Source: Candidatus Heimdallarchaeota archaeon (lineage in GTDB: Archaea; Asgardarchaeota; Heimdallarchaeia; JABLTI01). From it: a stretch of 64,000 nt of DNA. Below are positions 30,907-32,828 of this stretch, in pieces. The stretch is from assembly GCA_018238155.1 (NCBI GenBank), contig JABCTZ010000032.1:64001-128000 (forward strand), written 5' to 3'. How positions within the stretch are numbered: position 1 is the first letter of the stretch; each line of letters starts with the position of its first letter. The translations under genes and the position numbers were made by a program. The notes under the pieces are model-generated. The model did no database searches. It had not been told where the DNA came from and was given only the letters and a program-made list of their open reading frames with translations.

Positions 30907-30940
30907 AAAAAAACCCCTTTCGGGGATTTCTTTCTTTTTA
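30907..30940 (+). terminator. Hairpin plus T-tract
   Basis: CCCC-tttc-GGGG followed by atttctttcttttt. Confidence 0.5.
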
Positions 30941-31039
30941 TCAAAATATCCTCATTAATCAAATTTATATGCAGAATGCTTATACAGTAATATTAAATAA
31001 TCATCAAAACTTCGAGAGAAAAGGATGATGAACTAACCT

Positions 31040-31306
31040 ATGTCAGATAAAGAAATGCAAGTTTCAGAAGCAGATTTGAAAGGCGTTAACCTAAAGGAAA
31101 CACAAACAAAAGCTCAAGAGTCAGATATGAAATTAATGTTCAAATGTGATGATTGTAGTAAGACATATGATTGGCCTTTATGTTGCGGTGAATCAATGGA
31201 ATTAGAGGGCGATAATCTGGTTTGCACAGTAGAAGGTTGCGGGAAATCCATTCCTGTACCAGAATGCGATGGACATAAATGTAAACCATTTATAGCAAAA
31301 TCGTAA
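31040..31306 (+). CDS. Small protein: WH2/beta-thymosin-like N-terminus plus duplicated Cys-rich metal-binding motif
   Basis: MSDK...LKGVNLKETQT; CDDC...PLCCGESM and C....CG...P.P.C.GH.C. Confidence 0.7.
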   Translation: MSDKEMQVSEADLKGVNLKETQTKAQESDMKLMFKCDDCSKTYDWPLCCGESMELEGDNLVCTVEGCGKSIPVPECDGHKCKPFIAKS

Positions 31307-32171: not shown

Positions 32172-32828
32172 TTATCCTTTTTTGATAGCATCTTCTTCAT
32201 CTGGGTGTCTAAAGAGCTCACCTTTAATATATTTTCTAGCACGTTCTTCGTATTTCTCTTGACAAATTGGACCGTCAAAGTACCGTTTTCTACCAAGGAT
32301 CGCTTTTGAAAATACTTCGCCTGAAAATTCTCGATGACAATAATCGCATCGTATAACCAAATTTATGGGTGAACTCGGAAGTTCAATAGTTTTACACAAA
32401 AATGTCTCAAGATTAATTGATGAAACAAGTTCAATAACTGATTCCCCTGGTAAAGAGTTAATGTGTTTGATAAAGTCCAATTTATTTCTATCATGCATGT
32501 TGTGTGTTACAACAATTAGATTGTAATGTCCAGAGGAAATTGTCATATTAGCGATAAATGGACTTTCAAATAATTTTTTTGCAACATCATCTAAATGACT
32601 TGGTTTGATTTTTAGCAGGAAAGTCATCGAAGTTCCTTTCATAATCATATTTTCATCAAGAATAATTGTGAATTTTTCAATCAAACCTGTATCGATGTAC
32701 TTCTGTATTCGTGTTTTGATAGACGGAATTGTTAAATTTGTCTCTCGAGCGAGGGCTGCATAGCTTGTTCTCGAATTCTCGATTAAAGTTGTCAATATTC
32801 GTAAATCTGTTTTGTCCAATTTGTGCAT
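32172..32828 (-). CDS. Lrp/AsnC-family regulator with C-terminal TRASH-like domain
   Basis: LDKTDLRIL...NSRTSY..LA HTH, RAM-like middle, CDYC...RYFDGPIC...Y. Confidence 0.85.
   Translation of the reverse strand: MHKLDKTDLRILTTLIENSRTSYAALARETNLTIPSIKTRIQKYIDTGLIEKFTIILDENMIMKGTSMTFLLKIKPSHLDDVAKKLFESPFIANMTISSGHYNLIVVTHNMHDRNKLDFIKHINSLPGESVIELVSSINLETFLCKTIELPSSPINLVIRCDYCHREFSGEVFSKAILGRKRYFDGPICQEKYEERARKYIKGELFRHPDEEDAIKKG

Follow-up and report, generated by a model that had tools for sequence, protein, structure and literature searches.

The window is the whole stretch of DNA that was analysed, 64,000 nucleotides from a Candidatus Heimdallarchaeota archaeon whose assembly is 4.08 Mb long and 91% complete. 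The gene considered here has 88 codons plus a stop (Table 1) and lies at C41:95040-95306 of that assembly. Its reading frame was confirmed from the ORF listing and by translation, and the protein sequence (P0001) quoted in the first-pass annotation is exact. All 10 genomes of the window's own family (f1) carry the gene as one copy per genome. The protein has two parts, an N-terminal tail and a cysteine-rich module. A search of P0001 against Pfam and NCBIfam returned sub-threshold zinc-finger noise and nothing else.

Upstream of the gene, at 30914-30940, a CCCC-TTTC-GGGG hairpin and a T-rich run follow right after the stop codon of an M20 peptidase gene, and this terminator-like structure sets the peptidase gene apart from the upstream region of the 88-codon gene. 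The order M20 peptidase, 88-codon gene, HAD gene and Lrp-like regulator is kept in 9 of 9 relatives of the window's family and not in family f4. A MazG-like gene also belongs to this neighbourhood, which is conserved within the window's own family only, and with no conservation further out it gives no operon-level clue to function. The regulator, two genes downstream in 9 of 9 relatives (32172-32828, minus strand in the window), is Lrp/AsnC-like and has a C-terminal extension with a C-x2-C pair.

Table 1. Coordinates of the gene, its parts and the CopA-type ATPases that carry the same module. Positions refer to the window unless a locus is named.
Feature	Position	Strand	Remarks
Whole gene	31040..31306	+	88 codons plus stop; 17 close homologs, 68-86% identity
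TATA-like element, A/T-rich	30961..30971	+	about 70 nt 5' of the start; identified by eye
N-terminal tail, residues 1-28	31040..31123	+	conserved, predicted disordered, thymosin-beta/WH2-like at family level
Short predicted helix, residues 10-15 (EADLKG)	31067..31084	+	DSSP on the AF2 model; L13 is the sole conserved hydrophobic residue
Motif L18-K-E-T-Q-T23	31091..31108	+	diverged from the family motif L-[EK]-H-[VT]-E-T; Tb4 has LKKTET
Putative metal-binding module, residues 31-88, predicted all-beta double zinc-ribbon	31130..31303	+	AF2, hhalign, ESM Atlas
Cys unit 1, C36-x2-C39 ... P46-x-C48-C49-G50	31145..31189	+	sequence reading
Cys unit 2, C62-x4-C67-G ... P74-x-C76 ... C81	31223..31282	+	sequence reading
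CopA-type ATPases of family f14	L018:4199-7081, L019:4025-6820, L020:3879-7079	-	one or two YHS/TRASH domains, then one or two modules of about 55 residues

The cysteine-rich module and its relatives

The first-pass annotation described two cysteine units and likened them to sites of the desulforedoxin or rubredoxin kind. The two units are real, and the eight cysteines of the window's module (36, 39, 48, 49 and 62, 67, 76, 81) make two sets of four ligands. In unit 1, C36 and C49 never vary, position 48 is either Cys or His, and one subgroup has no C39; in unit 2, C62, C67 and P74 are invariant. Across the wider family the pattern C-x2-C...P-x-(H/C)-C-G-x-P-M occurs twice, the second unit of distant members being C-x2-C...P-x-H-C-G-x-P-M. 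The window's second unit is diverged and reads C-x4-C...P-x-C-D-G-x-K-C. A subgroup of close relatives (P0011, P0013-P0017, L010-L012) has lost C39 and C81 together and has six cysteines, not eight, which suggests that these two residues form a pair or share one metal site. AF2 models the module with a pLDDT of 78-81 in the window protein and of about 89 in P0038, a distant member.

The module is widespread, its family profile matching 193 of the 301 genomes of the phylum. In family f11 it stands alone in ORFs of about 60 residues, and in f14 it is found at the C-terminus of frames of 900-1075 residues, sometimes as two tandem copies; among the matches listed, about 50 genomes have it inside frames of that size. 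Three of the f14 frames were read, and these are CopA-type heavy-metal P-type ATPases with E1-E2 ATPase, HAD, HMA and YHS/TRASH domains and the motifs GMTCASCA, CPC and DKTGT. CopA-type ATPases are the module's only fusion partner, which speaks for a role in metal homeostasis and not in the cytoskeleton. An hhalign comparison of the family with the CopA C-terminus gave 99.4% (E 2e-21) over 53 columns, covering window residues 31-84 and excluding the tail. In the ESM Atlas, the best neighbour is a cluster of 170 archaeal P-type ATPases of about 1007 aa (TM 0.56, rmsd 2.1, 60 residues), followed by hypothetical proteins of 57-60 residues, some of them bacterial, and then by clusters of the PriA Cys-rich region. 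The f14 C-termini and the free proteins of 55-65 residues thus contain a homologous module with the same C-x2-C...P-x-(H/C)-C-G-x-P-M units, but they do not have the N-terminal tail. It is likely that the module is a metal-binding domain of archaeal heavy-metal pumps that Pfam does not cover, which would make it an unannotated domain on archaeal copper pumps. The homology to the CopA C-terminus and a weak likeness to desulforedoxin support the earlier reading of a metal module, and binding itself is suggested by the ligand pattern together with the company of HMA and copper-binding YHS/TRASH domains.

The host's own CopA homolog (826 aa, C41:263100-265538) does not contain the module, while other genomes have it fused, and the domain is therefore fused to the pump in some genomes and separate in others. 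Free tail-less modules of 57-62 residues (P0065-P0069) are found in bacterial metagenome bins (e.g. Binatota) as well as in Asgard archaea, and the module is therefore wider in distribution and probably older than the tail.

As for the fold, Foldseek against the PDB returned nothing below E 0.78, and the PDB fold matches that were seen, to zinc-ribbon, desulforedoxin or Rieske folds, are all weak (Z at most 3.4). The nearest named fold class is the PriA Cys-rich region (PF18319), a two-zinc interleaved ribbon, with the weak scores of TM 0.40-0.46 in the Atlas and VIA Z 3.4 over 66 residues (rmsd 5.8). A PriA-like fold explains the label 'primosomal protein N' that is found in some sources, but the family has neither a helicase context nor a sequence-level Pfam match to PriA. 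Desulforedoxin, or the N-terminal domain of desulfoferrodoxin (PF06397), is similar in its C-x2-C ... C-C-G-E-x-M signature, and it is the best VIA match of the window model (Z 2.8, rmsd 2.4 over 33 residues). PF06397 matches 7 of 23 family members weakly (best E 0.00093) and does not match P0001. The spacer is 8 residues in the family versus about 15 in desulforedoxin, His often takes the place of the first Cys of the pair, and there are two tandem units. The likeness that the first-pass annotation had seen is present in a weak form, with scores that appear to lie far below any membership level. The C-terminal zinc domain of Loki gelsolin, a single (CxxC)2 ribbon with a Tyr-tipped loop (PMC9433394), was considered as well and is a different domain; hhalign of the family with the C-terminus of Loki 2DGel (L043) gave 12.8%, with the CxxC knuckle alone aligned.

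The N-terminal tail

The tail is the best-conserved part of the protein. S9-Q26 is nearly invariant in the 17 close homologs, all labelled Heimdallarchaeota or Asgard, and distant relatives keep L-x-H-[VT]-E-T, so that the N-terminus is conserved among homologs, as an actin-binding role proposed in the first-pass annotation would have it. In the family alignments, conservation of L18 and T23 is 90% or more. When seven distinct genes of the window's family are compared, synonymous divergence peaks in codons 9-26 (0.34 per codon-pair) and non-synonymous divergence is at its lowest there (0.18), so that selection is on the peptide and not on an overlapping nucleotide element. The tail is under protein-level purifying selection.

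Residues 1-28 of the window protein have an AF2 pLDDT below 50, with a short helix at 10-15, and in the models of both this protein and P0038 the tail is unpacked against the metal module. In P0038 the predicted tail helix is 14 residues long (5-18) and is followed by the extended, unpacked DPKLKHTET (pLDDT about 55). As modelled, this layout of a helix plus an extended motif is that of a WH2 or thymosin peptide. In the long-helix subgroup, the last hydrophobic residue of the helix lies five residues before the motif Leu, like F12 before L17 in thymosin beta-4 (Tb4). The window copy has the same spacing between L13 and L18, with a helix of 6 residues and the motif LKETQT. Outside one subgroup, the tail helix has one well-conserved hydrophobic residue only.

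Distant relatives, short proteins with 27-44% identity, came from searching 1.84 billion representatives exhaustively and then searching with a profile. All that carry a name are from Asgard archaea (Hodarchaeales, Thor-, Hermod- and Promethearchaeota). Their tails have the form MSD/E ... E-L ... L-[EKD]-H-[VT]-E-T, with examples such as KLKHTET, DLKKTTT, DLKHVET and GLEHVET, and in most family members the first basic residue of LKKT is replaced by Glu. The large proteins that the exhaustive search also returned (SRCR, Calx-beta and C2H2 arrays) are repeated weak matches to the Cys pattern, and a language-model atlas search with one distant tail gave no usable match.

Within the phylum, the tail profile matches 32 of 301 genomes, always as a single copy and at the N-terminus of a frame of 77-160 residues. 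It is found in 10 of 10 genomes of f1, 9 of 21 of f4, 4 of 11 of f3 and 1 of 2 of f7, all of the window's class, and in the one genome of f22 (1/1). In this search it is near-absent from f11 (1 of 76, weak) and f14 (2 of 68, weak). Weak matches in larger frames, to a tRNA-synthetase-like protein and an unrelated acidic protein, are spurious. Within the genomes and databases searched, the tail thus appears as an Asgard-only addition to an older module.

Likeness to thymosin beta-4

The first-pass annotation had proposed that the protein begins like Tb4. The Tb4 reference sequence was verified against PDB chains 4pl7 and 4pl8, and in a gapless alignment the window protein has eight identities in the first 26 positions (M1, S2, D3, K4, L18, K19, T21 and T23) with L in place of F at position 13, just as had been described. 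The accompanying claim that the tail fits the WH2 pattern (I/L)xxGxxLKKT is off by one, since the window reads L-x-G-x-x-L-K-E-T and is one residue short before the Gly when compared with the I-x-x-G-x-x-LKK[TV] of WH2. The local score between window protein and Tb4 is 29, which ranks 1171 of the 16,370 ORFs in the host's own genome. When the comparison is anchored at the N-terminus the window protein ranks 2nd among the same 16,370 ORFs, with MSDK giving 20 of the 29 points. The pairwise likeness is not beyond chance.

The signal beyond chance lies in the tail profile of the whole family and not in the window's own copy. A tail-only profile of 26 sequences and 37 positions was searched against 177,635 distinct PDB sequences, and its best four matches, with E 0.054-0.26, are chains that contain Tb4, in alignments that span SD to KLKKTETQE. 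All matches other than Tb4 have E above 1, and the best non-thymosin sequence among the 177,635 scores 12.6 bits; native Tb4 with its Met scores 22.4. The WH2 chains of WASP, WAVE, MIM and Spire are not among the PDB matches of this profile. A profile of 22 distant tails, with the window's subfamily excluded, gives Tb4 1-26 a score of 22.2 bits (P 6.9e-9), a test that depends partly on how the hypothesis arose, as the distant tails are related to that of the window. With the same profile, P0001 reaches 24.1 bits, and among the remaining 30,358 frames of the genome the highest score is 7.4. Composition-matched shuffles of Tb4 do not reach the real score (0 of 60,000), even with MSDK fixed, and nor do column-permuted tail profiles (0 of 400). 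Without MSDK, Tb4 still scores 17.1 bits against the tail profile.

The signal survives a jackknife. Tb4 scores 16.8 bits when the three most thymosin-like members are left out and 15.4 without the whole long-helix subgroup. Two of the tail subgroups alone give Tb4 14-16 bits, and three of the six lack significance when taken singly. The f4-type is weak, with 5.4 bits, and the lowest thymosin likeness of all is that of the window's own subfamily, whose profile gives Tb4 -4.8 bits. In hhalign, the distant tails against a thymosin alignment gave 83.9% (P 7.7e-6, 24 columns), and the real score of 25.9 compares with a maximum of 15.0 in permuted nulls, which are a small sample from which rare numerical artefacts (score above 130, similarity 0.13) were excluded. 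Likeness to Tb4 grows in the relatives, where a chance likeness should fade. As measured with these sequence profiles, the family-level tail resembles residues 1-26 of Tb4 well beyond chance.

The likeness is one-directional. In the reciprocal test, an HMM of vertebrate thymosins gives no family member more than 6.1 bits, which is inside the genome background. Scoring against Pfam, which the first-pass annotation had named as a check, did not bear the proposal out: the Thymosin model PF01290 (gathering score 24.8 bits) has no match on P0001, 23 family members or 10 isolated tails at E up to 10, and the WH2 model PF02205 has none on P0001 or the family tails at the same limit. When both models were scanned genome-wide, the 88-codon ORF was not among the matches at E up to 10. 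The genome's best Thymosin and WH2 matches are of the same strength as in control genomes, and the WH2 match, at C41:53900, is antisense inside a 344-aa gene. Of the proposed thymosin-like tail, the part that stands is an Asgard-only profile of distant tails that matches Tb4 1-26; the window's own subfamily and the reciprocal profile do not show it.

Compared with beta-thymosins, the tail is likewise predicted to be disordered, starts with MSD and has its motif at the extreme N-terminus. At family level, it also has a short amphipathic helix with L-x-K/H-T/V-E-T five residues after the last hydrophobic. The linker and second helix of thymosins (residues 27-43) are missing, however, and a folded metal module stands in their place: in the AF2 models, about 10 residues follow the tail motif before the beta-strand module begins, and there is no thymosin C-terminal helix to cap the pointed face of actin. 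The window copy further differs in reading LKETQT and in giving no match to the Pfam model.

Possible partners of the tail

Asgard archaea have eukaryote-like actin, and their characterised actin regulators are profilins and gelsolin/cofilin-like proteins. The actin of the host genome (C45:43051-44163) is also eukaryote-like, with E of about 1e-160 to yeast and muscle actins, including an actin-Tb4 fusion chain. It retains the acidic pair (GEDQPR) and the 334-349 PPERRYSVWIGGSILSSL helix, which together we take to be the surface contacted by WH2 and thymosin motifs. The host also has a two-domain gelsolin (217 aa, L047:1435-2088, plus strand, C7) with LVHV as the WH2-like motif between its domains.

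The motifs of the tail family have counterparts in known actin-binding peptides. The literature records LKHTET and LKHAET as variants of LKKTET of the thymosin/actobindin type (PMC3284464, PMC2132640). Asgard gelsolins contact actin through the WH2-like motifs LRRV, LKHV and LVDV (PMC9433394), and for Asgard and human gelsolins together the WH2-like motifs of the linker are LRRV, LKHV, LVDV and FKHV (PMC9433394, PMC7444086). In Loki gelsolin, the Asp of LVDV binds Ca2+ jointly with Asp25 of actin (PMC9433394). Given these motifs, LEHV and LKET do not go beyond what is known of such sequences, and an acidic residue is no necessary bar to binding. Like WH2 peptides and gelsolin linkers, the tail has a helix plus an L-x-x-V/T core, with L-x-H-V as in the gelsolins of Heimdall, human and host, but unlike the gelsolin motifs it is not part of a gelsolin. 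The LVHV of the host gelsolin is intermediate between the published LKHV of Heim and LVDV of Loki.

The account that we favour, at a little under an even chance, is that of a metal-binding microprotein with a thymosin/WH2-like docking tail for which actin is the candidate partner. The tail would dock as a short linear motif, folding upon its partner, which is most likely actin. Its helix would lie in the cleft that separates subdomain 1 of actin from subdomain 3, and the motif Leu would enter the 341-349 pocket, as happens with thymosin and WH2 peptides. Lying about 10 residues further downstream, the metal module would take the place of the second helix of thymosin, and could make actin binding dependent on metal or redox state. 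Through its acidic or His residues the motif might form a cation bridge to Asp25 of actin, in the manner of the LVDV of Loki gelsolin. The window copy, with its LKETQT and weak helix, would be a diverged member whose activity may be weaker or altered. Judged from sequence, the protein is a testable candidate for an archaeal actin regulator.

A more far-reaching form of the same idea is that Asgard archaea, especially those of the Heimdall type, possess a free-standing, pre-eukaryotic thymosin/WH2 peptide that binds G-actin and is joined to a metal domain, sequestering or delivering monomers in a metal- or redox-dependent way. This stronger form is rather doubtful. If true, it would add a third class of archaeal actin regulators besides profilin and gelsolin, and the tail could be an ancestor or an early convergent twin of the thymosin/WH2 motif. 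Should the tail bind actin, the most widespread of the short actin-binding motifs would have arisen before eukaryogenesis, and cytoskeletal control would be linked to metal status, a coupling that to our knowledge is not known in eukaryotic thymosins. In our literature search, no description of a free archaeal thymosin or WH2 peptide came to light.

The main competitor is that the protein belongs to the CopA system, as a metallochaperone-like or metal-sensing protein whose module would bind either Cu(I) or Zn(II), just as on the pump. The tail would then be a lineage-specific docking or regulatory element for a non-actin partner (a module-less CopA, another metalloprotein or its own module), and the likeness to thymosin would be convergent, as may happen among simple disordered sequences made of a helix plus LxxTET. 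It is a real possibility, somewhat less likely than the actin account. The fusion of the module to CopA-type ATPases and to nothing else, adjoining YHS/TRASH in about 50 genomes among the matches listed, points this way, as do the absence of the module from the host CopA, the cysteine desulfurase/NifU/TusA/DsrE cluster next to one distant member, the negative results with Pfam Thymosin/WH2 and the reciprocal thymosin HMM, and the conserved His and Glu of LEHVET, which are plausible metal ligands. However, such a role leaves unexplained why Tb4 is the best PDB match of the tail profile (P of about 7e-9 for the distant tails) with matching N-terminal register and spacing. In f14 and f11, moreover, the fused and the free modules work without a tail, and the inspected neighbourhoods of tail-bearing members showed no link to a copA gene.

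It is improbable that the tail is a mere flexible, charged extension, serving solubility, N-terminal processing or as an intramolecular lid, with a coincidental likeness to thymosin. Such a coincidence would agree with the chance-level pairwise similarity of the window's protein to Tb4, with a thymosin signal that runs in one direction and is not significant in three of six subgroups alone, and with the small, artefact-prone null sample of hhalign. Against this, residues 9-26 are near-invariant despite free synonymous change, which indicates a specific function; the best real sequences used as nulls leave a gap of about 10-15 bits (7.4 in the genome, 12.6 in the PDB); and the tail is not packed on the module in the AF2 models. 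Finally, the tail (SEADL-KGVNL-KETQT) is almost certainly not a pair of A(D/N)LxX pentapeptide repeats: pentapeptide-repeat proteins are the best PDB matches of window residues 1-33 (whole-sequence E 0.0014), but this score sums weak matches on a repetitive target with each individual stretch insignificant, the two or three units present at most fall short of the at least four needed (two make less than one coil of the repeat helix), disorder is predicted by AF2, and the five-residue periodicity is absent in distant relatives, so that the family alignment effectively refutes it.

The gene neighbourhoods have no steady link to actin genes and are not conserved beyond the window's family. Among the distant members, the tail-bearing P0060 (L023:5062-8282) divergently adjoins a 126-aa gene and an Fe-S/sulfur-relay cluster of cysteine desulfurase, NifU, TusA and DsrE, an arrangement that is identical in two samples. 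P0047 (L026:2823-8270) is the next gene downstream of an FtsZ/tubulin gene, surrounded by ribosomal and translation genes, with a gelsolin gene 4.5 kb upstream, and other distant members adjoin peptidases.
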